Shown here one piece after another: positions 13,355 through 52,492 of a stretch of 64,000 nt of DNA. Positions within the stretch are counted from its first letter, which is position 1, and every line of letters starts with the position of its first letter. The notes beneath the pieces are model-generated. The model worked only from the letters and a program-made list of their open reading frames with translations. It did not search any database and was not told where the DNA came from. Origin of the DNA: Microcaecilia unicolor. Lineage: Eukaryota. Both the position numbers and the translations under genes were made by a program. The DNA is taken from positions 104,359,279-104,423,278 of the forward strand of contig NC_044037.1 of the NCBI RefSeq assembly GCF_901765095.1, written 5' to 3'.

Positions 13355-13480
13355 GCTCTTGCACCAAATCCTGCACTCCACTAAGGAGTAGATCAAGAAT
13401 TGCTCCCCATCTTGCCAGTTCATGAAGCAGTCAACCTTATCTCCCTAACAATTACCCAGTCAATATTGGGTTAACTTAAA

Positions 13481-17504: not shown

Positions 17505-19868
17505 TCATTGGTCACTTCCAAGTATCTGATGATGACTCGTCTCACATCCAGAAATTGAGAGCAGAGTATTCCTCTGGGTAGACCTCCCTACGAAAGGAAG
17601 GGAGACTGCTTTCAACGTCAGGTCTTTCAGAGATGCCCTCGACAAGGGTTCAAAAGGCGGCTTCTGCAATGCTCTTAGCACCAGGTTGAGATTCCACGCA
17701 GGCACCACTGAGTGCAGAGGAGGGCGCAGGTGATTAACTCCCTTGAGAAAGCGCACCACATCTGGCTGCGAAGCCAGGGAAGCACCCTTCAGGCGGCCCC
17801 TGAAGCAAGCCAGAGCCGCTACCTGAACTTTCAGGGAACTGAGCGACAGGCCTTTGTCCAGACCTTCTTGCAGGAACGCCAACACTGAAGAAATTGGAGC
17901 AGTGAAGGGAGAAAGTGAGCCTGCTTCACACCACGCTGCAAAGATACGCCAAAGCCTGGCGTAAGCCGTAGAAGTAGAGCGCTTCCTCGCTCTCAGCATA
18001 GTGGCGATGACCTTGTCTGAGAAGCCCTTCTTTCTCAGACGCTGCCGCTCAATAGCCAGGCCGGAAGACCAAAGGGGGAGGGATCCTCCATCACCACAGG
18101 ACCCTGATGTAACAGGCTCCACTGGCAGCCGCAGAGGATCGCCGACTGAGAGCCTGATCAAGTCCGCATACCAGGGACGTCTGGGCCAATCCGGACCCAC
18201 CAGGATTACCCTGCCGGGATGCTTTGCCACCCGGTCTAGCACCCTGCCCAACATGGGCCAGGGCGGGAACACATAGAGAAGCTCTTGTGTCGGCCACCGT
18301 TGGAGAAGAGCATCTACTCCCAGGGATCGAGGGTCCCGTCCTCTGCTGAAAAAGCGCGGCACTTGGCAATTGGCCGATGACGCCATAAGATCTAGGCTCG
18401 GCTGGCCCCAGCGCTTCGTGATGCCCAAGAACGCCTGAGCAGATAGCTGCCACTCTCCGGGCTCCAAGGTATGGCGACTGAGAAAGTCCGCCTTGACATT
18501 CATGACTCCGGCAATGTGGGCCGCTGACAGCTGTTCCAGGTTCGCTTCCGCCCACCAGCATAGATTCATGGCCTCCTTGGCTAGAGGGGCGCTCTTGGTA
18601 CCTCCCTGGCGGTTGACATAGGCCACAGCCGTGGCATTGTCTGACAGGACCCGTACAGGCTTCAACACCAGTACCGGGATGAACTCCAACAACACCAACC
18701 GAATGGCTCTGAGTTCCAGGAGGTTGATAGACCACTTGCCTCTGCAGGAGACCAGAGCCCCTGCGCTGTCCTTCCCAAGCAGTGAGCTCCCCAGCCCATC
18801 AAAGAGGCGTCTGTCGTGACGACAATCCACTCCGGGGTCACCAGAGGCATTCCTGCAGACAACTTGTCTGTCTGCGTCCACCAGCTCAGCGCCTTGCGCA
18901 CTGCTGGGTCCAAGGGAAGGCGCACAGCATAATCCTCCGACATCGGAGTCCAGCGCAGCAGCAGAGATTGTTGTAGTGGTCTCATATGAGCCCTGGCCCA
19001 GGGCACTACTTCCATCGTGGCCGTCATAGAGCCCAACAGCTGCACGTAGTCCCAAGCCCGAATAGGAGAGGCTACTAGGAACTAGTCCACCTGAGCCTGA
19101 AACTTGACAATCCGATTGTCTGGCAGGAACACTCTGCCCACTTGGGTGTCGAATCGAACTCCCAGATACTCCAGGGACTGAGTCGGGCGCAGCTGGCTTT
19201 ACTCCCAGTTGATGATCCACCCCAGGGAGCTCAAAAGAGCAACCACCCGGTTCACAGCTTTGCCGCACTCTGCATAAGAGGGGGCTTGGATCAACCAGTC
19301 GTCCAGATAAGGATGGACTTGAACTCCTTCCTTCCTCAGGAAGGCCGCGAAGACCACCATTACTTTGGAGAAGGTCCGCGGAGCAGTAGCCAACCCGAAC
19401 GGGAGGGCTCTGAACTGGAAGTGTCGGCCCATTACTGCAAAACGCAGAAAGCGTTGATGAGGAGGCCAGATGGGAATATGCAAGTACGCTTCCTTGATGT
19501 CCAAGGATGCCAGGAACTCTCCTGCCTTCACTGCCACTATAACAGAGCGGAGGGTCTCCATGCGAAAGTGCCGAACTTTCAAGGCCCAATTGACCCCTTT
19601 GAGGTCGAGGATAGGCCGTACAGAACCTCCTTTCTTTGGTATCACAAAGAAAAAGGAGTAACATCCCTTGCCAAGCTGATTTTCTGGCACCGGAACGACC
19701 GTCCCCAGGCGGATCAGATTGTTCAAGGTCTGCTGCACTACCACAGCTTTGACCGGAGACTTGCAGGGAGAGAGTACAAACCCGTCTTTTAAGGGTCGGC
19801 AGAACTCTAGCTTGTAGCCGTCTCTGATGACTTCCAGCGCCCAAGCGTCTGAAGTTATTGTGGTCCAC
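17505..19868 (-). CDS. DIRS-like RNase H, DIRS-specific conserved region and YR N-terminal domain. Real coding starts near 19200 after a -1/+1 frame change from the RT ORF; 19200-19868 of this ORF is out-of-frame overlap
   Basis: Shows LLELRAIRLVL...NVKADFLSR (RNase H), LLYVFPPW...RVILVGPDWPRRPWYADL, and GFSDKVIATMLRARKRSTSTAYARLWRIFAAWCE...VPAWNLNLVLRAL (YR core-binding domain). The ORF stops before the catalytic RHRY region, and only ~270 nt remain before the ICR. Confidence 0.75.
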   Translation of the reverse strand: MDHNNFRRLGAGSHQRRLQARVLPTLKRRVCTLSLQVSGQSCGSAADLEQSDPPGDGRSGARKSAWQGMLLLFLCDTKERRFCTAYPRPQRGQLGLESSALSHGDPPLCYSGSEGRRVPGILGHQGSVLAYSHLASSSTLSAFCSNGPTLPVQSPPVRVGYCSADLLQSNGGLRGLPEEGRSSSPSLSGRLVDPSPLLCRVRQSCEPGGCSFELPGVDHQLGVKPAAPDSVPGVSGSSIRHPSGQSVPARQSDCQVSGSGGLVPSSLSYSGLGLRAAVGLYDGHDGSSALGQGSYETTTTISAAALDSDVGGLCCAPSLGPSSAQGAELVDADRQVVCRNASGDPGVDCRHDRRLFDGLGSSLLGKDSAGALVSCRGKWSINLLELRAIRLVLLEFIPVLVLKPVRVLSDNATAVAYVNRQGGTKSAPLAKEAMNLCWWAEANLEQLSAAHIAGVMNVKADFLSRHTLEPGEWQLSAQAFLGITKRWGQPSLDLMASSANCQVPRFFSRGRDPRSLGVDALLQRWPTQELLYVFPPWPMLGRVLDRVAKHPGRVILVGPDWPRRPWYADLIRLSVGDPLRLPVEPVTSGSCGDGGSLPLWSSGLAIERQRLRKKGFSDKVIATMLRARKRSTSTAYARLWRIFAAWCEAGSLSPFTAPISSVLAFLQEGLDKGLSLSSLKVQVAALACFRGRLKGASLASQPDVVRFLKGVNHLRPPLHSVVPAWNLNLVLRALQKPPFEPLSRASLKDLTLKAVSLPFVGRSTQRNTLLSISGCETSHHQILGSDQ

Positions 19869-19969
19869 TCGCCCATAAACGAGGACAGCCGTCCTCCAAT
19901 CTGCACTGGGGCGTGGACCAAGGCCCCGTCATTGGGTACAAGACCCTGGGGGAGGACCGGAGGGAGCAC
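19199..19969 (-). CDS. DIRS-like reverse transcriptase domain
   Basis: Carries RT motifs (FFFVIPKKGGSVRPILDLKGVN, FLASLDIKEAYLHIPI, FRALPFGLATAPRTFSKVM, YLDDWLI). Confidence 0.85.
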   Translation of the reverse strand: MLPPVLPQGLVPNDGALVHAPVQIGGRLSSFMGEWTTITSDAWALEVIRDGYKLEFCRPLKDGFVLSPCKSPVKAVVVQQTLNNLIRLGTVVPVPENQLGKGCYSFFFVIPKKGGSVRPILDLKGVNWALKVRHFRMETLRSVIVAVKAGEFLASLDIKEAYLHIPIWPPHQRFLRFAVMGRHFQFRALPFGLATAPRTFSKVMVVFAAFLRKEGVQVHPYLDDWLIQAPSYAECGKAVNRVVALLSSLGWIINWE

Positions 19970-21596
19970 CTCCGGGACGGCGGTCTCTGCGAAAGGAATA
20001 CTGCTTGGGGCAGAAGTTCCTCTTGAAGGAAGAGGGGGCAGAGGAGCCCGACCTGCCCGGGCGGTACCGACGGGCTTCCTGAAACCGTCCTCTGGAGGTA
20101 CCAGGGCGAGTACTAGCCCGAGCCCTGACCTCTGGTAACTTCTTGCCCTTAGACGTGCCGAGATCGGTCACGATTTTGTCCAGCTCGACCCCAAAGAGCA
20201 GCTTGCCTTTAAAAGGCAATCTAGCCAGGCGGGATTTAGAGGCGTGGTCAGCAGACCAATGTTTCAGCCAAAGCCACTGCCGCGCAGAGATTGTCTGAGC
20301 CATGCCTTTCGCTGAGGCCCTCAAGACATCATACAGCAAGTCTGCCAAATAGGCTAAGCCCGATTCCAGGGCCGGCCAATCAGCCCTCAAGGAAAGATCC
20401 GAGGGGAAAGCCCGCTGCACCATAGTCAGGCACGCCCTGGCCACATAGGAGCCGCAAATTGAGGCCTGCAAACTTAAAGCAGCTGCCTCAAAGGACGACC
20501 TTAAGGCCGCCTCCAATCTTCTGTCTTGGGCGTCCTTTAGGGCCGTGCCACCTTCCACCGGCAACACCGTTTTCTTAGTCACCGCAGTGATTAAAGAATC
20601 CACGGTAGGCCACAGATAGGCCTCACGTTCACTTTCAGTCAAAGGATAGAGGCGGGACATAGCCCTAGCCACTTCAAGGCTCGCTTCCGGGACATCCCAT
20701 TGAGCCGCAATTAAGGTGTGCATGGCATCATGCACGTGGAAGTTTCTAGGCGGGCGCTTCGTCCCCAGCATAATGGCAGAGCCAACAGGGGCTGAGGGAG
20801 AGACGTCCTCCGGAGAGGAAATCTTCAAAGTGTCCATGGCCTGTACCAACAGGTTGGACAAATCCTCTGAGCTAAAAAGCCGCGCTGCAGAGGGGTCATC
20901 CGCTCCATCCGAGCGGGGATCCGTCTCCTCCAAGGAATCCGCAAAGGACCGTTGGGAGACCTCAGATACGCTGCCCTCATCTACATCAGAGGAGACAAAG
21001 TCCTCCAAGGCCTGGGAATCAACCCGAGGGCGTTTACCTCTGGGAACCTCAACCTCTTTACCAGACGAGGGAGCAGGGGCAGCGTTTTGCATAAGGAAGG
21101 CCTGATGCAGCAGCAAAACAAACTCGGGGGAGAAACCCCCCAGACTGTGTACTTCCGCAGCCTGGGCAACAGCCCTAGACGCACCCTCAACCAGCGCTCG
21201 CAAGAGCGGGGGAGAGACATGCTGCGCATCCAAAATGGCGTCCGGCGCGACACTCCGCGAAGGAGCCGCGCGGGAAGAACGGCGCTTAACTTTAGCCGCT
21301 TTTGTGCCGTCGCCCAAATTAAGGGCGTTCATGGCATTAATGTCTCCAACCTCAAGGGCGGCCCAAGAAGAAGCCGTCCGAGCCGCGTGGCCGGCCAAGA
21401 TGGCGGAGGCGAGGAGCGGGGGATGGGCGTTTATGGCGGGAAAAACCACCACGCCGGAGGAAGGACCGGGACATTCATCGGTCACGAAACTGTCACCCAA
21501 CAAGGGCGAATCAGGCTTTAAGACCCCCGCATCCCCTCTAGAAGCGCTCAAGCGATCCGGGTAGCGACTCTTTGCGCCCTCGCCCTCCGACGCCAT
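19929..21596 (-). CDS. DIRS-like ORF1 (gag-like), 555 aa, intact
   Basis: It is the first ORF of the element, and a paralogous fragment lies at 1109-1327. Confidence 0.6.
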   Translation of the reverse strand: MASEGEGAKSRYPDRLSASRGDAGVLKPDSPLLGDSFVTDECPGPSSGVVVFPAINAHPPLLASAILAGHAARTASSWAALEVGDINAMNALNLGDGTKAAKVKRRSSRAAPSRSVAPDAILDAQHVSPPLLRALVEGASRAVAQAAEVHSLGGFSPEFVLLLHQAFLMQNAAPAPSSGKEVEVPRGKRPRVDSQALEDFVSSDVDEGSVSEVSQRSFADSLEETDPRSDGADDPSAARLFSSEDLSNLLVQAMDTLKISSPEDVSPSAPVGSAIMLGTKRPPRNFHVHDAMHTLIAAQWDVPEASLEVARAMSRLYPLTESEREAYLWPTVDSLITAVTKKTVLPVEGGTALKDAQDRRLEAALRSSFEAAALSLQASICGSYVARACLTMVQRAFPSDLSLRADWPALESGLAYLADLLYDVLRASAKGMAQTISARQWLWLKHWSADHASKSRLARLPFKGKLLFGVELDKIVTDLGTSKGKKLPEVRARASTRPGTSRGRFQEARRYRPGRSGSSAPSSFKRNFCPKQYSFRRDRRPGGAPSGPPPGSCTQ

Positions 21597-26481: not shown

Positions 26482-28832
26482 TTGCATTGCCTCCAATCAG
26501 GGCCGTGCCAATGCGGTAAGTGGGGTAAGCAAGGCAGGGGGGCGCCTGCCTTTGAGGGGCGCCGCTGCCCTGCCATCCCTGCCTTCCACTCGCTTGCAAA
26601 ATCTTTTACCTGAAGTTGTGATTCTCCTACCTCCCCTGCCCTCCTTTTCATGGCAAACTGGAAGTGAAAGCAACGCAACGCAACGCAGCAGTATTCACTG
26701 AGGCAGGCAGGCTCTTCAAGTTATTTGAGAGAATGCAACCAGATTGCTATATATGTCTTTGGTTTGGGGATAACTCCTCACTCAGGGTGAACTTCAGAGC
26801 TTGAACAGCATTCATATTAAAGAGACTGGGAGAATGGGCGTGCAAGTGGCAGATGAAGTTCAATGTTGACAAGTGCAAAGTGATGCATGTGGGTAAGAGG
26901 AACCCGAATTATAGCTAGGTCTTGCAAGGTTCCGCGTTAGGAGTTACGGATCAAGAAAGGGATCTGGGTGTCGTCGTCGATGATACGCTGAAACCTTCTG
27001 CTCAGTGTGCTGCTGCGGCTAGGAAAGCGAATAGAATGTTGGGTGTTATTAAGAAGGGTATGGAGTCCAGGTGTGCGGATGTTATAATGCCGTTGTATCG
27101 CTCCATGGTGCGACCGCACCTGGAGTATTGTGTTCAGTACTGGTCTCCGTATCTCAAAAAAGATATAGTAGAATTGGAAAAGGTACAGCGAAGGGCGACG
27201 AAAATGATAGTGGGGATGGGACGACTTTCCTATGAAGAGAGGCTGAGAAGGCTAGGGCTTTTCAGCTTGGAGAAGAGACGGCTGAGGGGAGATATGATAG
27301 AAGTGTATAAAATAATGAGTGGAATGGATCGGGTGGATGTGAAGCGACTGTTCACGCTATCCAAAAATACTAGGACTAGAGGGCATGAGTTGAAGCTACA
27401 GTGTGGTAAATTTAAAACGAATCGGAGAAAATTTTTCTTCACCCAACGTGTAATTAGACTCTGGAATTCATTGCCGGAGAACGTGGTACGGGCGGTTAGC
27501 TTGACGGAGTTTAAAAAGGGGTTAGATAGATTCCTAAAGGACAAGTCCATAGACCGCTATTAAATGGACTGGAAAAATTCCTCATTTTTAGGTATAACTT
27601 GACTGGAATGTTTTTACGTTTGGGGAGCGTGCCAGGTGCCCTTGACCTGGATTGGCCACTGTCGGTGACAGGATGCTGGGCTAGATGGACCTTTGGTCTT
27701 TCCCAGTATGGCACTACTTATGTACTTATGTACTTATGTAAATTTTAAAAGTGCTAAAAATACGTTTTTTAAGTATTTGCATTAAATCTAATTGCAGAAT
27801 TCAGGTGCTGGGAGTCTGTACTTGGTTGTCATATGCTCAGATTTGTTTAAATCATATGCAAATTACTCTGTTTTTGGGAGGTTCACATTTGCATATTTAT
27901 GGATCAAAAATGATGGGAATGTTTACAGCCTTAATGTTAGGTCATGGCTCTGATCAAAAGTGTGAAGTTTGATCCAAAAACGAAGGGTTTATCTAGTGTT
28001 TTTCACTAAGAATTCCCATGAGTGTCTGTATGTTAATCTGCATTCAAATAGAGCTCTCTGATTGGATGATCAGCTTCTGTTAGAAATCTGCCGGGAATGG
28101 AACAGAGTGAGACAGCAACTGATCGTCGGTTTGGTCAAGAGAGACATGCAGCTGTGAGTTCCTGTTTGTGTTGACTGAAATTATAAGAGTGCCTGATTAT
28201 GTGGTAAATGAGAAAATATGAGTGAAAAGAGGTTGGTGGAGTTTGAGGTTTCGCTAGTGAGAAAAGGATCTGAATATTTCAGGATTACTTGAAGTTTATG
28301 AAGAATAGAAAAGGGTGAATTTCAGTTTAAGAGTGTTTAAATCCTATAAGCTATATAAAGGCTAGGTAGATTTAAGTGACTGTAAGCAAGGAAACCTTAA
28401 TATTTGATCTGAAATAAATATTTGATCTGAGATAGTTGATCAGAGATAAATGTTTGATCTGAATTATATCCTTTGGTGCAAAGGAGATTAGAAAAAGAAT
28501 CTTTGGAAACTAAGAGGATTTTGCCCACATTTTGAATTAGCATTCCTATTTTGAGTTGGAAATCTTTGGAAACTAAGAGGACTTTGCCCACATTTTGAAT
28601 TAGCATTCCTATTTTGAGTTGGAAATCTTTGAAGTGTTATGAAAATACATTTTGCTTTAATGACATTGCTAAACTTTAGAGTCAGAGACTTATCAATGAG
28701 GGATACCTACAGTGCTATTTTTTCCTGAGGTCTGGCTTACTTGCCTGCTCCCTTCTGTTCCTGCTCTGCTAGGCGGAGAGGGGGCGCCAACTGATAGTCT
28801 GCAGGGGGGCACCAGAGACCCTAGGCACGGCC
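26482..28832. mobile_element. Non-autonomous DNA-transposon-like element with CAGGGCCGTGCC termini, carrying a nested CR1 fragment and internal 62-bp tandem repeats
   Basis: The 5' end is cagggccgtgccaatgcggtaagtggggtaagca and the 3' end ...ggcacggccctg is its inverted complement. The internal CR1 copy is at 26820-27735. Tandem repeats lie at 28395-28625. Confidence 0.55.
26820..27735 (+). mobile_element. 5'-truncated copy of the same CR1-like LINE (RT C-terminus plus 3' UTR and (tacttatg)n tail)
   Basis: Near-identical to 9830-10740. ORF 26922..27563 repeats the C-terminal RT sequence. Confidence 0.85.
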
Positions 28833-30303: not shown

Positions 30304-30486
30304 TTTTTTTATTTTATTTTTTGTTACATTTGTACCCCGCGCTTTCCCACTCATGGCAGGCTCAATGCGGCTTACATGGGGCAATGGAGGGTTAAGTGAC
30401 TTGTCCAGAGTCACAAGGAGGTGCCTGTGCCTGAAGTGGGAATCGAACTCAGTTCCTCAGGACCAAAGTCCACCACCCTAACCCTA
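30304..30486 (-). mobile_element. SINE copy (same family, head slightly truncated)
   Basis: Roughly 90% identical to 13159-13354. Confidence 0.8.
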
Positions 30487-31027
30487 TCTAGTATTTGGCT
30501 TTCTTTTCCTTTTAGCATGTACACCACTTTGGCCTGTTCTTCAGAAAAAAGCAGTATAGCAAGTTTTATAGTTGGCATCTACACACACACACTCCTGCCA
30601 CCCCCAAATTTGCAGTTCTAAGCAGCTGCCTAGTCTTGCCCAATGAATGGGCCAGCCCTGCATGCTGTGCAACTGGTCTTTGGAAGGATGCCATATAGAA
30701 AGGCAAGCTTGCACTGCCACTTTCCATGCTGTACCATCTCTATGGTAAAAGATACACAGAACAAACCTCAAAATATAGCTTAAAAGTGACTGCAAAGTAA
30801 AAATCAAAACATGCAGACAAAAATTCCTGGAAGACTCCATTAAGCTAGACACTGTACGCAATACCACACTGGAAAAATAAAAACAGAAAATTCTAAAAAT
30901 ATTAGAATTTGACATTTCTCAAAGCCGATTAAAAAAAAAACTTCCCACGCATGGACTACGAAAAACTCTGAATTATCCTCGGTAAACAGGAAATGCAACA
31001 GCAAAATACGAGTCCTGTTTACTAAGA

Positions 31028-31160
31028 CATGTTAGCGTTTTTAAAACGCCTACAATTAGCACTCGCGCTGTGAAGGCGCCTATAGGGATATTGTAGGCAC
31101 ATACATGGTTAACGCGTGTACATGGTTTACACGCATTAAAAACGCTAAGCATTGCTGAAT
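31028..31160. repeat. Small palindromic element (gttagcgtttttaa ... ttaaaaacgctaa). A paralog lies at 60095-60170
   Basis: The shared motif tacacgcattaaaaacgctaa and its complement ttagcgttt(t)taa occur at both loci. Confidence 0.5.
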
Positions 31161-31407
31161 CCATAACAACCCACCTTGAAATAATCTCAATCAGAATCCA
31201 CCACAATACCCTGCTCGACCACCTAAATTGTGTCTTGTTTTACAGACCTCCATGCAACTGGAATGAAAGCCAAGCAGACTCCATGGAACACATGTGTATC
31301 CAACTCCAATATACTACTAATAGGAAACATTAACCTTCACCTAGAAGACCCAAACTCTACAAACGCAAGAGACTGTAAGGATTTCCTTCACTTGTGCAAT
31401 CTAACTT

Positions 31408-31788
31408 ATGCAAACAACACACACGAAAGGCCAAACACTAGACCTCATCTTATACAAACTATCCACTGACCAGAACCTAACCATAACACAAATCAGATGG
31501 ACAGAAATACCATTGACCGACCACTATAAATTAAACCTATCCCTAAAATGGCGGAAAAAAGGCTCTCTCCACACAAGACAACACACAACCCACATCACGA
31601 GAGGCCAAATAAACCCGGATACTTTCTGGCAACAGATATACAATAACGACTGGACAACACAAACGGACTCCATCCACTATCTCTCAGTTTGGGACAAAAG
31701 ATGCAGACACATACTAGACACAATAGCACCCCTACAAACAAGAACCCACGCAGACACAACTCGATACCGTGGTTCAACGAAGAATTGA
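31408..31788 (+). pseudogene. Degenerate LINE endonuclease C-terminal segment
   Basis: PTHxxGxTLDLI and SDH-like motifs. Confidence 0.55.
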
Positions 31789-32446
31789 AAAAATCAAAAA
31801 CACAATCAAGGAGACTAGAACGCGCATGGAAAAAAAAAATAAAAGACGAACACACACTCAATGCATGGAAATAGGTACAAAGGACATACAAATATGCAAT
31901 AAGACAGACCCAAAGGTCATATTACAAAACCAAAATTGGGCCGGACTACAACAACACGAAGAAACTATACCATCTCGTGAACAAATTACTAGACACAACA
32001 CCGGTCACCACAACCAACATCGACATCCCATGTGTAGACAACCTTGCTAAATATTTCAACGAAAAAATTATTAATCTACGCCAAACCCTACCTCTGGACA
32101 ACACGGATATAAAAACTTCATAAATGGGCTGGACCCCACCCCTGGTGATTACCCGGCGGACCGATTATGGACAAACTTCATTCTCATCTGCGCCGACATA
32201 GTTACTCAGGCGATTAAAAAATACTCCAAAAGCCACTGTCAATTGGACATCTGCCCCAGCTACCTAATACAATCTGCCCCCCACCGCTTCATAAATCCCA
32301 TCTAAATTTCATGCTTCAGCGGGGTATTTTCCCTAAAGAAAAAGGCAACATCCTGCTCACCCCAATACCAAAAGACACCAAGAAAAAAAACAAATGACAT
32401 CACCAACTACCGCCCAGTAGCATCTATCCCATTAGTAGTCAAACTT

Positions 32447-32824
32447 ATGGAAGGATTGGTGACCAAACAACTCAACGATTACATAAACAAATTCACTACA
32501 CTACATGAATCACAATCAGGATTCCGACTCCAACATAGCACCGAAACAGTACTACTCACTCTCCTATCCAAATTCAAGCAGGAGATAGCAATAGGCAAAA
32601 GCATTCTCCTCCTTCAATTTGACATATCCAGTGCGTTCGACATGGTTAACCATAACATATTGCTAAGACTCCTAGACTATTTCGGAATTGGTGGTAACAC
32701 TCTCAACTGGATTAAGGGCTTTCTAACCACCAGAACATACCAAGTGAAATCAAGCACCAACATATCGTCACCCTGGAAACCAGACTGTGGAGTACCACAA
32801 GGATCACCACTATCAAGCTCATGA
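32447..32824 (+). pseudogene. Degenerate LINE RT segment
   Basis: Shows SQSGFRLQHSTETVLL, FDISSAFDMVNH and GVPQGSPLS. Confidence 0.65.
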
Positions 32825-33252
32825 TGGTCCCACTAGCCAAAGCCTCATCCACATAAGGCCTTAATCCATTCACTTACGCTGATGACGTAACACTATACAT
32901 TCCCTACAAGCATGATTTAGCAGAAATCACCAATAAAATCAAGCTCAGCTTAAACATCATAAACTCATGGGCAAATGCATTCCAACTAAAACTCAACACA
33001 GAAAAAACACACTGTCTCATCATCACATCCCAACACAACACAACACATACAAACCCACAAACATTAACACCCCAGGATACACCCTCCCTATTTCAGACAG
33101 CCTGAAAATTCTCGGAGTAACAATCTACCGAAACCTCCAACTAGAGTCCCAAGCTAAACTCACCATAAAGAAAATGTTCCTCTCAATGTGGAAATTAAAA
33201 CGTGTGAAAACCATTCTTCCCGAGGGAAATATTTCGCAACCTGGTACAGTCA

Positions 33253-33738
33253 ATGGTACTAAGCCACGCAGACTATTGTAACGGAATCTATGCGGGATGC
33301 AAAGAACAAATAATAAAGAAACTTCAAACCACCCAAAACACAGCAGCACAGCTTATATTTGGAAAAACGCGTTATGACAATGCCAAACCACTCCGAGAAA
33401 AACTGCACTGGCTTCCAATTAAGGAACGCATCGCATTCAAAATCTGCATGACAGTTCACAAAATCATCTATGGCGAGGCACCGGGATACATGACAGACCT
33501 CATCAACCTAACACTCAGAAACACCATAAAATCAGTACGATCATACCTAAACCTCCACTACCCAAACAGCAAAGGACTCAAATACAAATCAACCTATGCA
33601 TCCAGCTTTTCCTACCTGAGCGCACAATTGTGGAACGCACTATCAAAAGCAGTAAAAACCACAGTCGACCACATGAATTTCCGGAAAGCACTAAAAACAG
33701 AACTGTTCAGAAGGGCATACCCCACCAACTCAACATAA
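33253..33738 (+). pseudogene. Degenerate LINE ORF2 C-terminal segment
   Basis: It is an L2-type C-terminus. Confidence 0.6.
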
Positions 33739-34292
33739 AACCTGGACAACTGCGACACAACGTAACCAAAGATCGTAACAGACATATCCTAACTCTTCCT
33801 TTCCCTCACTAAGTTCTCCCCAATTGTCTTTTACCATACATGTATCTCACTCTACCATAATATCACCTTGATATTACTCGCAATCTTGTATTTGTTCACA
33901 CTGGAATCGGTTAACACCGATTACAGTACTATGTAAGCCACATTGAGCCTGCAAAGAGGTGGGAAAATGTGGGATACAAATGCAACAAATAATAATAATA
34001 AATAATAATAAACAGAGCCCTATATGTTTTATGTGTTTCTGGTCTAATCATAGGAATGTGACTGATGACAGTACTGATCATTATCAGAATCATGGAACTT
34101 TTCTTATTGTCTTTTCTGTGCTCTGTAATTTTATTTACTGTTACTAACAACATAATATTTTATCACTTCATTTCTTTAAGAACTTTATATTTTCTTTAGT
34201 ACCACATGTACAAACTGCCATTCCACTAAAGTTTCCCGACTCAGTGCATGCAGGGAAGGAGCTCAGAAAGAAAGGCATTAAATGTGACTCAC

Positions 34293-35639: not shown

Positions 35640-37110
35640 ATTTCAAAGACAGAAATTGAATAATGAGGCACAGCTACCTTCATACGTTTTGGATGTTACT
35701 GAATTCTATTATTCTGTCACACTGTATTTCCAGTTTTGGCACAGTGTAAGTCATCACAAGGACAAAATGTAAGAAAACCAATGGACTGCATTAGGGGCTT
35801 ACAGCCCATTTAATTATGTTTAAACAAATGAGAGATCTGCATGAAAGAAAATATCTATTTTTATTATTTTGACTTATGAAACCACTCGTCTCTGAAACAT
35901 GCTCAAAACACAATAATCCGTTTGTACAAAAGAGATAAGGTGAAGATGTGATTCTATGTGCTCCAATGAAAGGAGAGTTTAATTTTACTTCCAATCGTTA
36001 TAACACCAGGATGCTCATTTTCGAAACAGATGGACGTCCAAAAAGTGACATAAATCGGCACTTAGACGTCCATCTCTCAGAGACGTCCAAATCAGTATAA
36101 TCGAAACCTGATTTTGGACGTCTTTATCAGAAGTCCGTCAAAATCTCAAGGGGGTGTATCAGAGGCGTGGTGAAGGCGGGACTTGGGCGTTCCTAAGACT
36201 TGGATGTCTTTGAGCCATAATGGAAAAACGCAGAGATGTCCAAGAGTTGGACATTTTTACCCTGACCTGTTTTTATTACGAATAAGGCACAAAAAGGTGC
36301 CCAAAATGACCACTGGAGGGAATCAGGGATAACCTCCCCTTACTCCCCCAGTGGTCATTAACCCCCTCCCACTCTTAAAAAACATCATTAAAAATATTAC
36401 TTGCCAGTCTCAGATGTCATACTCAGGTCCATGACAGCGCACACAGGTCCCTGGAGTAGTTTCGTAGTAGGTACAGTGCATGTCAGACAGTTGGACCCAG
36501 GCCCATCCCCCCTTACCTGTTACATTTGTGGAGGAAACAGCGAGCCCTCCAAACCCCACCAGAAACCCTCTGTACCCACACACAGGTGCCCCCCTTCACC
36601 CGTAAGGGCTATGATAGTGGTGTACAGTTGGAGGTAGTAGGTTTTGGGGGGCTCAGCACACAAGGTAAGGGAGCTGTGTACCTGGGAGCATTTTATGAAG
36701 TCCACTGCAGTGCCCCCCTGGGTGCCCGACTGCTGTCCTGGCATGTCAGGGGGACCAGTGTACTACAAATACTGGCTCCTCCCATGTACAAATGGCTTGA
36801 ATTTGGACGTTTTAGACTTGGACGTCTTTGGTTCCGAAAATCGCCGAAAATCAAAAATGTCCAAATCCAAGGACGTCCATGGTATTTTCAAAATGAAAGA
36901 TGGACGTCCATCTTTTTTCGAAAATGACCTTCTCCCCACTTCCGAATTTGGAGGCTTCCCAAAGTAGATTAAAACAACAGTTAAGATGAGCCCATCAGTA
37001 AACAGGATATCCTCACTGAAATTTGGCCATGTATTACTGTATTGTATAGAACAGTGTAGAAAAATGAGCACAAAAAAACAGCCTTTATTAGTGCTGTTTA
37101 CTTAAGAATA
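35640..37110 (-). repeat. Family X copy split by the nested DNA-transposon insertion (35640-36011 + 36967-37110)
   Basis: See 22490-22960. Continuity resumes exactly after the inserted element. Confidence 0.7.
36012..36966. mobile_element. Non-autonomous DNA transposon (~950 bp) with ~26-bp TIRs (ctcattttcgaaacagatggacgtcc / ggacgtccatcttttttcgaaaatgac) and many subterminal GGACGTC repeats, inserted inside another repeat
   Basis: The TIRs are visible. The host repeat (family X, 35640-37110) reads continuously across the insertion when compared with its paralog at 22490-22960. Confidence 0.7.
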
Positions 37111-37129
37111 TAAGAGTAGCCATACTGGG

Positions 37130-38390
37130 TCAGACAAATGGTCCATCTAGCCCAGTATCCTGTTTTCCAAACAGCAGCCAAGCCAAGTCACAAGTACCTG
37201 GCAGAAGCCCAATTAGTAGCAACATTCCATGCTACCAATCCTGGGGCAAGCAGCTGCTTCCCCATGTCTGTCTCAATAGCAGACTATGGATTTTTCCTCC
37301 AGGAATTTCTCCAAACCTTTTTTAAACCCAGATACACTAACCACTGTTACTACATCCTCCGGCAAAGAGTTCCAGAGCTTTTCTATTCGTTGAGTGAAAA
37401 AATATTTCCACCTATTTTTTTTTTTAAGTATTTCCATGTAACTTCCTCGAGCGTCCCCTAGTCTTTGTAATTTGGGAACGAGTAAAAAAAATCGATTTAC
37501 TTCTACTTGTTCTACACCACTCAGGATTTTGTAGACCTCAATCATATCTCCCCTCATCTGTCTCTTTTCCAAGCTGAAGAGCCCTAACTTCTTTAGCCTT
37601 TCCTCAAACAAGAGGAGTTCTATCCCCTTTATCATTTTGGTCGCTCTTCTTTGAATCTTTTCTAATTCCACTATTTCTTTTTTGAGATACGGCGACCAAA
37701 ACTGAAAATACTCAAGCTGCGGTCAAACCATGGAGCGATACAAAGGCATCATAGTATTTTGTCTTATTCACCATCCCTTTCCTAATAATTCTTAGCATCC
37801 TGATAGCTTTTTTGGCCACTGCCGCACACTGAGCAGAAGACTTCAGCGTATTATCTACAATGACATCTAGATCTTTTTCTTGAGTGCTGACCCCCAAAGT
37901 GAACCCTAGCATCAGGTAACTATGATTCAGATTATTCTTTCCAATGTGCATCACTTTGCATTTGTACACATTAAATTTCATCCGCTATTTGGATGCCCCA
38001 TCTTTCAATTTCCTAAGGTCTTCCTGCAATATTTCACAGTCTGCTCGTGTTTTAACAACCTTGAATACTTTTGTATCATCTGCAAATTTAATCACTTCAC
38101 TCGTCATTCCGATTTCCATGTCATTTATAAATATGTTAAATAGCACCGGTCCCAATATAGATCCCTGCGGCACTTCATTGTTCACCCTCCTCCATTGAGG
38201 GAAATTACAATTTAGTCCTACCCTCTGTTTTCTGTCCAATAACCAATTCCTAACCCACACCAGAACCTTGCCTCCTATCCCATGACTCTTTAATTTTCTT
38301 AGGAGTCTCTCATGAAGAACTTTATCAAAAGCTTTCTGAAAATCTAAATACATCAACCGGCTCACCTTTATCCACAATTCCACCAGCTAC
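37130..38390 (-). mobile_element. Diverged CR1-like LINE fragment (RT plus 3' UTR)
   Basis: ORFs 37273..37671, 37712..37981 and 37985..38383 carry RT motifs (FADDTKVF, VPQGSILGPVLF) and a CR1-type C-terminus. 37130-37210 matches the reverse complement of the CR1 3' UTR. Confidence 0.75.
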
Positions 38391-42620: not shown

Positions 42621-45600
42621 CCACCATGCTGCTTCCCAAAGCCAGGGCCTGAGTCCAAACGTTTGGATACCTTGGTGCTTTGTAGCTTTTACTATATGAG
42701 ACGTGGGGACCCCTGACGCAGGTGCTAGTCACCGAAACACGGCCCGTGTCGGGTCTTCTTGTCAAGGCTCATTCGTTAAAGAACTGTGTTCCATTTTTAA
42801 AGGCTGTTTTTTTTTGTTTGTACTTCGTTCCCTCTCTTTTGTTATATCCAGGTTATCAATAAAGCACACTTGTACCACTCTTGAAAGCACTTTGTGCTTT
42901 TTTTGGACTTCTTGTGTTGTGTAATCTGACCCTCTCCGTTGTATGTTGCTATACCAATGAAAAGGTCATGAACAATAGGACCTGCCTCTGGTACTGTGGA
43001 CTCAGGCCCTGGCTTTGGGAAGTAGCATGGGATTTAGGGATCTTCCATGCTTACAAGGACAAATTTTAACAAAAAAGGTGTGCACAAAATAGGGATAGCA
43101 AAACAGGATTCAGTAATACAATAAAAAGGTAAGTCTGGTTGTTTAACTACAATCTATCTGTAGAACTATATTTACATAAGCTGCCAAGCCCAGTAAGAGT
43201 TCTGGGAGTGGCAGCCACATCCCTCATAAAGAGACATCCTTTTAGAGAGAGATTACCACCACAAATAGGTCTCTCTCATTGAGGCCACCAGGTCTTTGAA
43301 ACCCACAGCGCTGAGGTAATATAAGTTTACCATCCCCTGGTACCACACTCATGCCAAGGCCTCACAGAGAAAATCCTGTATAGCAGCAAGATAAAGCCTT
43401 CAGCTACAGAATAAACATCACAGTGAAAGGAAAGTTGGAAGAGGCAGGCGAGGTAGTGACGGAAAGAGCGAGAAATGGGGGAGAGGAGGTCAGAAGCAAG
43501 GGAAGTGGATAGGGACTGGGAGGATTAGAAATGAGGAGGCAGACTACAGAAAGAAAGACGTTGGGAGGGCGTGGGCAAAGCCCTTCCACCTACAGGATTT
43601 GAGAATTGCACCTTGCACTGTCAGTACAGAGCGATATCAGTCAGGGCTTCAATAATGCTTCCTCTGCAAGTCTTTCCAAATCTTTACCCCTATCCAACTA
43701 GAAGTACTGGGCATTTGCTGAAATATCAGAGTTATGAGCACATGCATGTTTACCTGCATTACGAACACTGTCAGATTTGCTCTAACCTCCTTAGGGTGCT
43801 GAAGGCCTAAGGAGATACCCTTATCCTCAGTCACGAGCCCGTTCTAATGATACACAGCCTTCACCACAATGCCCTCTAGAACTCAATTCTATCACTTACC
43901 TGTGTTATGAAAAACAGCCTTCAGGCCCAGGATGCATTTGGGCACATTGAGAGCAGTATGCTCTAGTTTCATACTGCTTTTACAGCTCCCCGACGGCGAT
44001 TTCTACGTTTATAAACACGCACACATTCTCTTTCCACTTTCTAGGCGTCTTCCTCTTTCCTTTCACTGCTCCCTGCCTTGCCTCTGCCTGGTTTCCGAGA
44101 CAGGTTCAGGAGAAGCTCTCTTGACTACAATCCCTATACCTAGGGAGGCGGTATTGGCCTGATAACCACCACAGGCCAGGATTACTCAGACCTAGCTCTG
44201 CTCTGCTGCGGATCTCTACCAAAAGGAAGGCAGAATCCTTTATCCTGACTATAGTAGTCCCTGCCATCCCTCAGTAAAGAAAAAAAATTGCATGAGCTGG
44301 TAACTCAGTACCTCTACATCAACACATATCATGTAACCGAATACTGCTTAATGAAAAGCAGAACAGAACATTGGAGTTTTAGCTGGAATGTCAAATGAAA
44401 TTATTGTTGCCTTTTTGTGATTTTTAGACTTAATTTTAGAGATTGTTTAGCCACGACCTCTGTTGTCAATCCAACAAAACTGGGGATACTGCCCTGGACC
44501 AACCATCATCTGCTAGGTTGGCAAACACCCACCTTTTCTTTCTGCTACCCCTACTCCAGCTGCAGGCATCCCAATGATACACATGAACAGTGTTTGTGCC
44601 TAGAATTTGTTCATATGCTGGTAGCTCGAGTGGGCTGACCGCTGGAAAAACAGGGCAGTGCCCGAGGGCTCACAACAGTAGGGGGCTGACTCTCCCCTAA
44701 TTGCCATCAAATTTAATCATTTTGATAGGTAGTTAGGGGCCTAAATCAAAGTCTGCCTCTGGTGAGTAGATTGGTGTATTTTATAGTCCATGTGCATACT
44801 TGCAAACTCTGCCCATGATCCACCATTCCTGTAAACGCCTACTGGAACAATAAACATAATCCTGTCATGGTTTGTATTTTATAAGAGGAGAAACAAGCAC
44901 AGGATATCTACACTACCAGACAAACAACACAGCAGAGATGACAAAAATAGCTGGAAATGTTTTAATAATATTCATATGACTTGACATGGCCATATTTCAG
45001 CTTAAATGGCCTGCATCAGGAGTCTGATTTTATCACCACAGGAATATAAAATTCAATGAGGCTTGAGTGTGCTGAGGCTTAGAAACCTGTCAATCCTGTA
45101 TTGCCCCTGACTATATGTTGCCCCTTGTTACTTTGCCTTCTGGCAATTCAGCCTTTGGTAGAAAAGACTACCTGTGTCTTCATTTTTCTACCTGTAAGAA
45201 AGTAGTTTATAAATCTATATGTTCAGCTACGGTTTCATACCAAGATACTAAATGTTGGAATTCCTTCCCGAAAAATATAAGATTGTTTTTAGGTAAGTTT
45301 TTTTAAATCTTTCCTTTTCAAAAAATTTCTGTCAATTGATCCTGGTGCCAAATCTCCCCCTTCCATTCTCCCCATTATGCTTTATTACTGAATTCTTTCT
45401 ATATTTACAATTCTTTCCTTACTAAGATGTGCGGGTTTGTTTTTTGTTTCATATAGCTTGTTAGCTACATTGAACTCAAAATGTATGGGAAAATGTGGGG
45501 TATGTATACATAAATGAATGAGCTGGGTTGGCAACAAGCTTTGCTTACCTGACTACAGCAGAGATTGTCCTTCAGAGGCAATAGGGCATCATTAGGCATG

Positions 45601-47469: not shown

Positions 47470-48480
47470 CTCAATCTTCAACTTTCCCCCCTTTCCATCC
47501 AGCATCTACCCCCTCTCTCCCCCTTTTCCTTCCAGCATCTGCCCCCTCTCTCTCTCCTTTCCATCCAGCATCTGCCCCCTCTCTTCCCTCTTGCCATCCG
47601 GCGTCTATTTTCTCCATCCATGTGTAGTTTTTCTTCTCTTTTCCCTTTCCCTCATCTCTGTCAGTATGCGTCTCCTTCCTCTTTCTTCACTCCCCTCCAT
47701 CCATATGCAACTCCTTCCTCTTTCTTCCCTCTCCTCCATCCATGTCCATTTTTCCTCTCTCCGCCCCTCCATCCATGTTCATCTCACTTCCTCTCTTCCC
47801 TCTCCTCCATCCATGTCCAGCATTTTTCCTCTCTCCACTCCATCCATGTGCATCTCCTCCTGTCTTCCCTCCCCTCCATCCATTTCCAGCATTTCTCCTG
47901 CCCTCCCCTGCATCCATGTACAGCAACTCTCATCTCTCCCCTGCCCTCCCAGCCATCAATATTCAGCAACTCTCCTCTCTCCCCTATCCTCTCCTGCATC
48001 CATGTCCAGCAATTCTCCTCTCTCCCCTGCCCTCCCCTGCATCCATGTCCAGCAACTCTCCTCTCTCCCCTGCCCTCTCCTGCATCTATGTCCAGCAACT
48101 CTCTTCTCTCCCCTGCCCTCCCCTGTATCCATGTTCAGCAACTCTCCTCTCTCCCTTGACCTCCCCTGTATCCATGTTCAGCAAGTCTCCTCTCTCCCCT
48201 GACCTCCCCTGTATCCATGTTCAGCAAGTCTCCTCTCTCCCCTGCCCTCCCCTGTATCCATGTTCAGCAACTCTCCTCTCTCCCCTGTCCCCTGCCCTCC
48301 CCTGTATCCATGTTCAGCAACTCTCCTCTCTCCCCTGTCCCCTGCCCTCCCCAGTATCCATGTTCAGCAACTCTCCTCTCTCCCCTGTCCCCTGCCCCCC
48401 CTGTATCCATGTTCAGCAACTCTCCTCTCTCCCCTGCCCCCTGCTCAGCATCAATGTTCAGCGATTTCTTCCCTGCCCTA
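47470..48480 (+). repeat. Pyrimidine-rich satellite array with a ~43-50-bp unit (catccatgtccagcaactctcctctctcccctgccctcccctg)
   Basis: A tandem periodicity is visible, and the long ORFs at 47411-48504 are its artefacts. Confidence 0.8.
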
Positions 48481-48915: not shown

Positions 48916-49746
48916 TTACTTGAAGTAATCAGTCATAGTCCTCTGTACACTATTGTGTCTGTGAGTTCCATAGACTACGTCTGCCAGACGGTAAAAACTG
49001 TCATAGCACTGACATCCAGTGACCTCCAGATAGGCCCGCACGGTGTTAAGACTCTCCAGCACTCTTGCAAAAGTGACAGGAGGTTGTTGAATTTCGTCAG
49101 CATGTGCCTCACTGCTCATTTCATCATCTGTTTCATCATCAGCCGTTGCCTGCGTGTCGGCCCATATCTCGACATCAGTGCTGTCGTCAGCTGTTTGTAG
49201 ATCGTAATCAACAGCTACGTAGTGATGAAACTCCTCTTCAGTAACACCGGCTGGGATGTCAATAGCCTGTTCATCTGATGCATTTGCAACAGCTGCATCT
49301 GTTTCGTCCCTCTCTACATCCTTAACAAAGCTTGCCCGCTTGTAGCAGTTCACAATGGCTGCCTGTGTAACATGATTCCAGGCTTCTTTCTGCTTTTGTA
49401 GGGAATCCAACAGTGATAGATTACAAGCCAGTTCAACAGCACGTTTATCTTTGCCAGTCTGGTCATCCATAACGCTCATCAGACAACGTAGCACAAGAGC
49501 CCAATAATGTTTTTTGAAATTGGCTATTATGCCCTGATCCATAGGTTGGATCAGAGAGGTAGTGTTTGGTGGCAGGAAGACCACCTTGATGTTAGACAGC
49601 TTGATATCATCACTGTGTGCAGCACAATTATCACAAAGCAACAAAATCTGACGCTTTTGTGCCTGCATTCTAGTGTCTAACTTCTTTAGCCACTGCTTCC
49701 AAATTTCCCCAGTCATCCATGAATTTGCGTTAGCCTCGTATGACAC
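48916..49746 (-). pseudogene. Tigger/pogo DDE transposase catalytic domain (frameshifted relative to upstream pieces)
   Basis: Shows LLLCDNCAAHS...VVFLPPNTTSLIQPMDQGIIANFKKHY, as in the Tigger1/2 DDE region. Confidence 0.8.
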
Positions 49747-52324: not shown

Positions 52325-52457
52325 TGTACCTTTATTCGACCACAATATCACCTTGTATTTGTTTCTCTACCGGACTAGGCGAAAGCCTTTACGGTATTAT
52401 GTAAGCCACATTGAGCCTGCAAATAGGTGGGAAAATGTGGGATCCAAATGCGACAAA

Positions 52458-52492
<35 letters not shown>

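Follow-up and report, generated by a model that had tools for sequence, protein, structure and literature searches.

A common 3′ hairpin module in a probable L2-clade LINE and a CORE-SINE of the caecilian Microcaecilia unicolor

A 64-kb stretch of the Microcaecilia unicolor genome (hereafter the window) most probably carries decayed copies of two partner retroposons, an L2-clade LINE and a MIR/Ther1-like CORE-SINE, which end in the same module of about 57 nt. This reading is based on three SINE copies and six L2 tails, for which sequence homology, a covarying hairpin, the domain make-up and an L2-type tail were computed here. The sharing of 3′ tails between LINEs and SINEs has been textbook knowledge since the 1990s, and no concept is therefore changed by the present case.

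The common module and its hairpin

The elements that end in the module are given below by position in the window, with the bit score of the covariance model in brackets where available.

6505-6656, + strand: 5′-truncated L2 3′ end of about 150 nt, with the module and (ATAA)3 (90.8 bits)
6722-6814, − strand: L2 tail consisting only of the module and a long (AAAT)n/A-rich tail (86.8 bits)
13159-13354, − strand: full-length SINE with an 8-nt internal duplication (85.6 bits)
30304-30483, − strand: SINE, about 22 nt short at its 5′ end and without the A box (86.9 bits)
31181-34012, + strand: the long L2-type LINE
45103-45521, + strand: older, diverged L2 3′ end (match at 45453-45518, 31.5 bits, E 2.8e-5)
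52325-52495, + strand: 5′-truncated L2 3′ end, with the module and (AAAT)~10 (90.1 bits)
59565-59742, − strand: SINE retaining both the A and the B box, with an internal deletion of 6 nt (80 bits)
62432-62740, − strand: 3′ end of an L2 from another subfamily (91.5 bits)

Eight sites in the window match the 20-mer GTAAGCCACATTGAGCCTGC with at most three mismatches (6589, 33933 and 52401 on the + strand; 6793, 13203, 30356, 59609 and 62480 on the − strand), against 0.00 matches expected from 100 dinucleotide shuffles. A distal 19-mer of the module picked out seven of the same elements in the window, with 0.03 expected. Used as a blastn query against the window, the LINE recovered the other copies seven out of seven (E 9e-11 to 5e-33), and the SINE recovered the five LINE tails together with the other two SINE copies (at 92% over 180 nt and 88% over 192 nt); between LINE and SINE tails, blastn E-values range from 1e-10 to 4e-15. 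In the multiple alignment, homology between LINE and SINE starts abruptly at ATGTAAGCC, precisely where the hairpin has its base, and ends at ...ACAAATG[C/T]AA[C/T]AA. The module so delimited is non-repetitive; five copies terminate L2-type LINE copies, three terminate the SINE of about 185 nt, and the covariance model revealed a ninth in the older L2 tail, which extends to about 45521. A full-text literature search for the module sequence returned 0 papers, and a metagenome scan with the module pattern returned 0 matches.

That the tails resemble each other by chance or as simple sequence, without a common origin, can safely be dismissed: this account has nothing beyond the A/T-rich terminal repeats in its favor, and it is rejected by the alignment, which reveals 57 nt of complex sequence with a boundary and a covarying structure in common, by the shuffle counts (0 matches) and by blastn E-values down to 4e-15. 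An earlier note on this DNA had proposed that the LINE, short tail copies and a SINE have one terminal module in common, and this holds, with eight copies at the places it named and none in shuffled sequence. Its coordinates were essentially right; we refine the LINE to about 31181-34012 and extend the copy near 62 kb to about 62740.

In the LINE, the hairpin (33932-33978) is built of three tiers, UGUA / CCACAUU / CCUGC - loop - GGUGG / AAUGUGG / UACA, and the module has a minimum free energy of −19.4 kcal/mol (z −3.4 versus shuffles). The same three-tier hairpin was obtained for all eight modules when each was folded alone. When the SINE tail is folded in its natural upstream context, however, the structure of minimum free energy has GCCCCAUG paired to CGUGGGGU in place of the LINE hairpin, which counts against the partner reading. 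Covariation was evaluated over the eight modules, the published L2-derived regions of Squam3A, Squam3B and Squam3C, and the old L2 copy. In this set, 91% of the cells in the consensus hairpin are paired, versus 38-59% in slid registers, and double changes occur at seven pairs; none of 500 shuffles reaches the observed values. The hairpin is intact in the SINE copies as well, with one compensated pair. The stem-loop predicted in the module is thus both conserved and covarying.

The L2-type LINE and the CORE-SINE

The long element is 2.8 kb in total, decayed and 5′-truncated. Its parts, all on the + strand, are as follows.

31181-33738: LINE body, 5′-truncated and decayed, with stops and frameshifts in three-frame translation
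about 31229-31552: C-terminal remnant of the endonuclease, aligning to residues 181-262 of the CR1 endonuclease of the window (E 2e-5)
about 32390-33150: reverse transcriptase (Pfam RVT_1, E 1.1e-26 on the stitched protein)
33253-33738: C-terminal domain, still open as an ORF of 161 aa
33739-33930: 3′UTR 5′ of the module, from a 3′UTR alignment of four L2 copies
33931-33989: module, comprising the hairpin followed by AAUGCAACAA
33990-34012: terminal microsatellite (ATA/ATAA)n, read from the sequence

As in L2-clade LINEs, ORF2 combines an APE-type endonuclease remnant with a reverse transcriptase. Compared with the CR1 ORF2 of the window, the LINE protein has 26% identity over 513 aa, indicating that it is related to CR1 yet distinct from it. 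We take the C-terminal ..LHWLP..FK..LKT.LF..AY motif to be L2-like. A protein homology search with the L2 protein gave anonymous matches only, at about 30% identity and none naming a clade, and an Rfam E-value search of the LINE 3′UTR gave chance matches only. The LINE tail aligns end-to-end with the published 'L2-derived region' of Squam3A (78% over 67 nt, z 18), and the LINE 3′ end is thus homologous to one labelled L2 in the literature (PMC7983390). Together, RVT_1, the APE remnant and the L2-type tail bear out the earlier description of the long element as an L2-like non-LTR LINE, and on these sequence features it probably belongs to the L2 clade.

The last ~50 nt of the LINE 3′UTR (TTGTATTTGTT...GGTACT) are kept among the L2 copies and missing from the SINE; in the consensus fold they form a second small hairpin with three compensated pairs. 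The 3′UTR alignment shows the short copies to be 5′-truncated LINE 3′ ends, so that they were rightly taken for L2 tails. All LINE-type copies carry (AAAT)n-like terminal repeats; that of the copy at 6722-6814 (−) is seen by TRF as (ATTT)n at 6722-6761. The copies at 6722-6814 (−) and 6505-6656 (+) lie tail-to-tail. The copy at 62432-62740 (−) retains the ORF2 terminus (..LNFRKSLKTYLFKKAYPNDPT*), to which tblastn aligns the L2 C-terminus at 60% identity over 25 aa. A divergent 3′UTR follows, and the last ~110 nt, which are conserved, include the module and (AAAT)3. In the older copy at 45103-45521 (+), an ORF2 C-terminal remnant (..WNSLPEKIRL..; L2 C-terminus versus 45103-45282, tblastn E 2.6e-6) is followed by a degenerate module and the terminus ATAAATGAATGA. 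No fewer than three or four lineages of L2 tail (the 33k, 62k, 6813 and old 45k types) are present within 64 kb, and many more subfamilies must therefore exist genome-wide.

Among the SINE copies, 13159-13354 (−) comprises an A box (TGGCCTAGTGG), a B box (GTTCAATTC), the 5′ half of the CORE (..GTGACTCTGGGCAAGTCACTTAACCCTCC..), the SINE-type module and an A11 tail. The copy at 30304-30483 (−) has the B box GTTCGATTC and the tail A6TA4TA7, and in 59565-59742 (−) the end of the module is replaced by (CAA)4A8. The A-box consensus is TRGCNNAGTGG, to which TGGCCTAGTGG conforms at 11 of 11 positions in the 13159 and 59565 copies. Both B boxes fit the consensus GWTCRAnnC (PMC5381342) exactly, and the A-to-B box spacing is 33 nt.

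The SINE head aligns with the published heads of Ther1, Squam3 and tuaMIR; extended by the 5′ CORE half, it is 70-76% identical over 103-115 nt to Ther1, Squam3A, tuaMIRa and MIR_Testu (0/300 shuffles). For the CORE CTCCTTGTGACTCTGGGCAAGTCACTTAACCCTCC, identity to that of Xenopus Xt1 is 91% over 34 nt (0/300 shuffles), and identity to Coe2 is 84% over 37 nt. The SINE has no more of the CORE domain than its 5′ half, and, as in CORE-SINEs, the LINE-derived 3′ region (the 57-nt module common to the L2 copies of the window) is followed by an A-rich tail. ARAGORN reported no tRNA in the SINE head, and Rfam gave no match to the SINE at gathering thresholds and chance matches only at E up to 10. Since tRNA detectors are silent on the head, the support for tRNA descent is its homology to CORE-SINE heads. 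The proposal that a tRNA-headed SINE ends in a diverged module is nonetheless sustained, by a pol III-type head in the A/B-box scan and by the diverged module itself. Judged by sequence, the SINE is a MIR/Ther1-like CORE-SINE, with a tRNA-type head, a CORE and an L2 tail. Its MIR-type CORE, absent from the earlier note, places the LINE/SINE pair in an already described class.

No target-site duplications of at least 8 nt were detected at any of six copies examined. Few are found in Squam3 as well (PMC7983390), and their absence here is compatible with L2-type SINEs without lending this positive support.

The probable L2 partner of the SINE

The tails split cleanly into five of LINE type and three of SINE type. 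Tail identity is 76-85% between the groups and 85-95% within the LINE group; the SINE copies are 88-92% identical to one another. About ten differences are fixed between the groups, including a 1-nt deletion and the whole apical loop, with AAAKAG in the LINE type and CAUGA in the SINE type. The 3′ arm has AAAGCG in the SINE type versus AAAATG, and the SINE-type states read GCCGC...CCATGAG...AAAGCGYGGGG. With respect to the features of an UnaL2-type pair, a ~60-nt 3′ tail with a conserved stem-loop is common to LINE and SINE, whereas loop and terminal repeat differ, the latter being (AAAT)n in the LINE versus A11, A6TA4TA7 or (CAA)4A8 in the SINE. The earlier note had gone on to identify the L2 family present here as the mobilizer; given the fixed tail differences, the loop, the 1-nt deletion and the A-rich SINE ends, that identification is not established.

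A plausible reading, to which we give somewhat less than even credence, is that the partner is a related L2 subfamily outside the window whose tail is identical to that of the SINE; the L2s of the window would then be sister lineages with the ancestral module. The fixed, group-specific tail differences speak for it, as does the middle stem, where GCCAC/GTGGG versus GCCGC/GCGGG also separates Squam3A from Squam3B tails; because those two differ by the same A-U versus G-C stem variant, both variants represent separate L2-tail lineages elsewhere. Set against this, the window contains no such LINE, and SINE tails can diverge independently after capture.

That the L2 subfamily of 31181-34012 and its truncated copies itself mobilized the SINE is possible, if rather doubtful. 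No other type of LINE tail in the window matches that of the SINE, the SINE tail keeps the hairpin architecture, and LINE and SINE copies are similarly decayed, as the within-group identities indicate. The clean split of five versus three tails, with its fixed differences in loop, deletion and 3′ arm, argues against this subfamily, as do the different terminal repeat and the presence of three or four L2 tail lineages already within 64 kb.

Very improbable, finally, is that the L2 tail is a relic and that the SINE copies moved via their A-rich 3′ ends by means of a poly(A)-dependent L1-type LINE. The SINE ends, not being (AAAT)n, would fit, and an ORF of L1 ORF1-like size lies at 61015-62202 (−), although it has no Pfam match and is identified as L1 by reading alone. 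However, the target-site duplications usual for L1-type insertions are lacking, the hairpin is intact with a compensated pair in the SINE copies, (AAAT)n readily decays into A-rich runs, and poly(A) tails have been reported for some L2-type Squam3 subfamilies (PMC7983390).

CR1 was also considered as tail donor and rejected: none of the three CR1 3′ ends of the window (GGGCTAGATGGACC...(ACTTATGT)n) is related to the module. The first CR1 ORF of the window (7552-8634) carries an endonuclease domain.

In the reading of an L2-clade LINE and a CORE-SINE as partners, the LINE RNA has at its 3′ end an interrupted hairpin of ~47 nt, then a short linker and finally an (AAAT)n repeat; the SINE (~185 nt) is made up of a pol III tRNA-type head, the 5′ CORE half, a diverged L2 hairpin module and an A-rich tail. 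By analogy with eel UnaL2/UnaSINE1, we infer transcription of the SINE, recognition by an L2 protein and mobilization: RNA polymerase III would transcribe the SINE, the reverse transcriptase of an L2-clade LINE would bind its 3′ hairpin, and reverse transcription would start from a nick in the target site, primed on the terminal A/T-rich repeat. LINE copies reduced to a short tail would be the usual 5′-truncated products of the same process. In the eel, UnaL2 retrotransposition requires the ~60-nt L2 tail (stem-loop and terminal repeat), and in cis this tail suffices for trans-mobilization, the loop being the recognized element (PMC1636434).

More speculatively, and with little confidence, we suggest that the L2 lineage found here, if it is the mobilizer, might read the interrupted stem and the 3′ flank rather than the loop; alternatively, the SINE might mark an undescribed caecilian L2 subfamily. 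A stem-reading reverse transcriptase, if real, would contrast with UnaL2, whose loop guanosine is essential, and would explain how one L2-tail type could serve MIR-like SINEs of amphibians and squamates.

Relation to known CORE-SINE/L2 pairs

Catalogued SINE/LINE pairs include MIR/L2, MIR_Xt/L2-5_XT and UnaSINE1/UnaL2 (PMC3747384). Like Ther1/MIR, which pair with L2 in mammals and reptiles, the caecilian SINE has a tRNA-type head with A and B boxes, a CORE and an L2-derived 3′ end, and its head plus CORE is 70% identical over 110 nt to Ther1 and 73% over 115 nt to MIR_Testu. Ther1/MIR are longer, however (~260 nt versus ~185 nt); the caecilian SINE lacks the 3′ half of the CORE (..TTTCCTCATCTGTAAAATGGGG..) and the spacer, and its L2 tail, of another sequence type, is not significantly similar to the L2 region of Ther1 (z −0.2).

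To Squam3A/B/C and tuaMIR (PMC7983390), head plus CORE is 76% identical over 103 nt. The caecilian elements also have the L2 tail type of Squam3A, with ...GGTGGGATAYAAATG and a terminus of the (TAAA)n type. Over 62 nt, the SINE tail has 74% identity to the L2-derived region of Squam3A (z 10.7), next to 78% for the LINE tail. Unlike the caecilian SINE, in which the CORE adjoins the hairpin directly, Squam3 carries the ACCTACCTCACAGGGTTGTTG spacer, and a 32-nt deletion in the CORE is characteristic of it. Squam3 has been reported as confined to Squamata (PMC7983390); the element described here is amphibian.

Another amphibian CORE-SINE with an L2 tail is found in Xenopus tropicalis, where MIR_Xt/Xt1 is paired with L2-5_XT (PMC3747384, Table 1). 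In addition to the CORE, at 91% over 34 nt, the start of the head is similar (AGGAGTTGGCCTAGAGGTTAAG vs GGAGGAGTGGCCTAGTGGTTAGGG). Differences lie in the inter-box stretch and in the 3′ portion of the body, and the tail, at 76% over 25 nt (z about 4), is only weakly similar.

The eel UnaL2/UnaSINE1 pair, an experimentally proven pair of the stringent type, likewise joins an L2-clade LINE to a CORE-SINE through a common 3′ tail of ~60 nt, with an interrupted stem-loop and a short terminal repeat; the caecilian pair is known from sequence alone. The eel tails have no detectable sequence similarity to the caecilian ones, their terminal repeat is (TGTAA)n instead of the (AAAT)n of the caecilian LINE, and the eel loop is common to LINE and SINE and recognized, whereas the caecilian loops differ.

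CORE-SINE/L2 pairs are already known from mammals, reptiles, fish and Xenopus, and a caecilian example is added here; literature searches on caecilian SINEs yielded nothing specific. The L2 tail type published for the squamate Squam3 SINEs is also present in an amphibian, and the covariation of its stem spans, by our own estimate, roughly 350 million years of divergence. The pair is useful for the annotation of caecilian repeats, and it offers comparative data on the features recognized by L2 reverse transcriptases.

Copies of the tail module in the window

The terminal 20-mer of the LINE (GTAAGCCACATTGAGCCTGC) occurs at eight sites in the whole window at ≤3 mismatches, and 100 dinucleotide-preserving shuffles yielded no match. 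A distal 19-mer (GGGATACAAATGCAACAAA) picks out seven sites in the same elements, where 0.03 are expected. With the LINE at 31180-34015 as query, blastn against the window returned seven further sites (79-89% identity, E 9e-11 to 5e-33):

6544-6656, match to the LINE
6737-6813 (-), match to the LINE
13161-13224 (-), match to the LINE
30305-30377 (-), match to the LINE
52352-52477, match to the LINE
59574-59630 (-), match to the LINE
62432-62546 (-), match to the LINE

The same search with the SINE copy at 13159-13360 (-) returned all five LINE tails as well as two further SINE copies, 30312-30483 (-) at 92% over 180 nt and 59565-59742 (-) at 88% over 192 nt. In a multiple alignment, LINE-SINE homology starts sharply at ATGTAAGCC and runs for ~57 nt up to ..ACAAATG[C/T]AA[C/T]AA, immediately before the terminal repeats. 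The site counts bear out the claim of the earlier note that the LINE, its short copies and a SINE have this tail module in common; since the segment is complex sequence, the alternative that note allowed for, simple-sequence similarity only, fails. When the eight modules were made into a covariance model and the window was scanned with it without filters, all eight were recovered at 80-96 bits. The scan added a ninth copy, an older one, at 45453-45518 (31.5 bits, E 2.8e-5); upstream of it lies what is left of an L2 ORF2 C-terminus (tblastn E 2.6e-6).

The LINE, its truncated copies and the SINE

At 31181-34012 lies a non-LTR retrotransposon that is decayed and 5'-truncated. Its ORF, translated in three frames, is interrupted by stops and frameshifts, and the final 161 codons (33253-33738) are intact. 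The stitched protein matches RVT_1 in Pfam (E 1.1e-26), and its first ~130 residues align (E 2e-5) to residues 181-262 of the window's CR1 endonuclease, the C-terminal half of this apurinic-type domain, with YRPP and G-D-F-N-like motifs in the aligned part. Identity to the ORF2 of that CR1 is only 26% over 513 aa, and the LINE is therefore of a different lineage; database homologues of its RT are anonymous, at ~30% identity. We take its C-terminal motif, LHWLP...FK..LKT.LF..AY, to be L2-like in look. The tail aligns end-to-end with that of the CORE-SINE Squam3A (78% over 67 nt, z 18, 0/300 shuffles), taken from the consensus 'L2-derived regions' of CORE-SINEs in the supplement of Vassetzky et al. 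2021 (PMC7983390); the match takes in ..GGTGGGATAYAAATG.. and the (TAAA)n-type terminus. For the tail, then, the description L2-like has support; for the protein it is plausible. Another repeat, with internal palindromic pieces (..gttagcgtttttaaaacgc..gcattaaaaacgctaagc..), abuts the truncated 5' end at 31000-31170.

Alignment of upstream sequence confirms that the short copies are ordinary 5'-truncated L2 3' ends:

6505-6656, L2 3' end with ~150 nt of 3'UTR
52325-52495, L2 3' end with ~150 nt of 3'UTR
62432-62740 (-), L2 3' end that also takes in the last part of ORF2 (LNFRKSLKTYLFKKAYPNDPT, then stop)
6722-6814 (-), L2 tail consisting of the module and a long (AAAT)n tail only

The copy at 62432-62740 (-) has a divergent proximal 3'UTR and therefore represents another L2 subfamily; together with the older ninth copy, this means that several L2 tail lineages coexist in 64 kb.

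Upstream of the module, the L2 copies share an extra conserved block, which the SINE lacks:

33884-33930, ~50-nt block; homologous in 6542-6588, 52350-52398 and 62502-62548 (-)

A small hairpin in the block has compensated pairs (GGCG/CGCC vs CGGT/ACCG). Also within the block, UAUUUGUU is complementary to AACAAAUA at the start of the terminal repeat, and this pairing could close the whole L2 3' end into a multi-branch fold; the predicted closing stem is invariant, hence without covariation support. The tails at 6505-6656 (+) and 6722-6814 (-) lie tail-to-tail with ~65 bp between them, probably as independent insertions, both inside a putative hAT-transposase remnant (..CMSTRWNN.., 6300-6720). 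Directly upstream of the module-only tail, a ~60-bp imperfect duplication at 6814-6960 (tacaatayattgtgaatgatggaaatacaatttg..ttacagtactgttatggttaca) may be part of a different L2 3'UTR or of the insertion site; TRF reports only a 10-bp repeat there, at 6834-6858.

The three SINE copies define a ~185-nt element, in which a head (GGAGGAG-TGGCCTAGTGG, 33 nt, GTTCAATTC) is followed by a CORE (..CTCCTTGTGACTCTGGGCAAGTCACTTAACCCTCCATTGCCCC), directly by the L2 module and then by an A-rich tail. TGGCCTAGTGG agrees at 11/11 positions with the A box consensus TRGCNNAGTGG. GTTCAATTC matches the B box consensus GWTCRAnnC exactly (quoted in PMC5381342). Neither ARAGORN nor Rfam called a tRNA in the head. 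Compared with published consensuses (PMC7983390), head plus CORE matches Squam3A and tuaMIRa (76% over 103 nt each), MIR_Testu (73% over 115 nt) and Ther1/MIR (70% over 110 nt), and the CORE matches Xenopus Xt1 (91% over 34 nt), with 0/300 shuffles for each match. These similarities lead us to class the SINE as a CORE-SINE related to MIR/Ther1, its CORE being shortened; the affiliation is absent from the earlier note.

Fold of the module and the LINE partner

In isolation, each of the eight modules folds into one and the same three-tier hairpin (-12.7 to -19.6 kcal/mol), with an outer stem UGUA/UACA, a middle stem CCACAUU/AAUGUGG (SINE type CCGC.UU/AA.GCGG) and an inner stem CCUGC/G(G)UGGG. 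Of the eight 67-nt segments tested, five reach z <= -2 against shuffles. Within the window, two SINE copies have G-U or G-C in place of the middle-stem A-U pair. In an alignment of few and related sequences, from one of which the structure was derived (the eight modules, the old L2 copy and the published Squam3A/B/C tails), the hairpin pairs 91% of cells, as against 38-59% in registers slid by 1-3 columns, and seven pairs carry two-sided changes (e.g. CCACAUU/AAUGUGG, CCACCUU/AAGGUGG, CCGCUUU/AAAGCGG); 0/500 shuffles attain any observed measure. The conserved stem-loop that the earlier note proposed to look for is thus present and, in this limited set, covarying. When the flanking SINE sequence is included, the lowest-energy structure has the CORE end GCCCCAUG paired to CGUGGGGU instead, so the LINE-like hairpin is not the sole fold open to SINE RNA.

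The window has three CR1 3' ends, at 10560-10745, 27560-27745 and ~37100-37270 (-), which are of the form ..GGGCTAGATGGACC..(ACTTATGT)n-like and are unlike the module; CR1 is thereby excluded as partner. The CR1 copies are:

7552-10745 (+), CR1 LINE, apparently intact and young, with an endonuclease ORF (Exo_endo_phos, E 1e-13), an RT ORF (RVT_1, E 1e-36) and a 3'UTR ending in (ACTTATGT)n
~26760-27745 (+), second CR1 3' fragment, near-identical
37100-38356 (-), older CR1 fragment, 3' end ..GGATACTGGGCTAGATGGACC..CTCTTATATTCTTA

To judge from its 3' end, the last is of a different CR1 subfamily. The intact ORF2 (8813-10570) shares 99% identity with a protein annotated in Microcaecilia unicolor (P0115), so that the window is probably of this caecilian species or one closely related to it. 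CR1 looks to have been active far more recently than the L2/SINE pair.

Within L2, the proposal of the earlier note that this very family mobilised the SINE is insecure. LINE-type tails are 85-95% and SINE-type tails 87-98% identical among themselves, and only 76-85% between the groups, which are separated by fixed differences (a 1-nt deletion; loop AAAKAG vs CAUGA; 3' arm AAAAUG vs AAAGCG). Terminal repeats are (AAAT)n in LINE copies and A11, A6TA4TA7 and (CAA)4A8 in SINE copies. The GCCAC/GUGGG vs GCCGC/GCGGG alternative also separates Squam3A from Squam3B tails, and both variants are therefore separate L2-tail lineages elsewhere. The fixed differences and these separate lineages argue for another, related L2 subfamily as the partner, a reading that we favour tentatively and rate somewhat above the subfamily of the LINE at 31181-34012; the latter is doubtful, given the identity between groups, the fixed differences and the other terminal repeats of the SINE. 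L1-type poly(A) mobilisation of the SINE seems very improbable.

The caecilian tails are arranged as in the eel, where experiments have proven the pairing of UnaL2 with UnaSINE1. The two have in common a ~60-nt tail with an interrupted stem-loop and a terminal repeat; this tail is the sole cis element required, the SINE is mobilised in trans by the LINE machinery, and template slippage accompanies the start of reverse transcription on the repeat (PMC1636434). By analogy, we infer that an L2-clade LINE mobilised the caecilian SINE: pol III would transcribe it, an L2-clade reverse transcriptase would capture it through the 3' hairpin and the captured RNA would be copied at the nicked target, the tail-only LINE fragments being presumably the usual 5'-truncated products. 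Target-site duplications of 8 nt or more were not detected at any of six copies; Squam3, which is L2-type, likewise has few.

Neighbouring elements and known LINE/SINE pairs

Further elements lie in the window:

17505-21596 (-), GC-rich (0.57) retroelement with long ORFs
47682-48439 and 53857-54941, 43-45-bp satellite in two arrays of opposite orientation, ~5.4 kb apart
48916-49746 (-), DDE_1 (pogo/Tigger-type) transposase ORF flanked by the satellite arrays
61015-62202 (-), 395-aa ORF directly downstream of the L2 fragment at 62432-62740

The retroelement looks DIRS-like. Among its ORFs, one matches RVT_1 (E 2e-16), another matches a LAP2alpha-like domain (E 4.5e-15), and the 787-aa ORF is without a Pfam match. 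DIRS elements reportedly dominate the TEs of the Banna caecilian (PMC11600591). The satellite arrays have strong GC skew, opposite in sign, and may both belong to a single large DNA transposon, as its repetitive subterminal regions. The 395-aa ORF has no Pfam match; by eye, its middle is coiled-coil-like and its C-terminal part resembles L1 ORF1p.

LINE-SINE 3'-tail sharing has been catalogued for 58 SINEs, including MIR/L2, Xenopus MIR_Xt/L2-5_XT, cichlid AFC/CiLINE2 and eel UnaSINE1/UnaL2 (PMC3747384), and the caecilian pair, with the same plan, is a textbook pattern. Our literature search found no paper with the module sequence or caecilian SINEs; automated libraries such as Dfam may hold the family. 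Of mild interest is that the L2 tail type published for the squamate-restricted Squam3 is also found in an amphibian L2 and SINE, with covarying stems.
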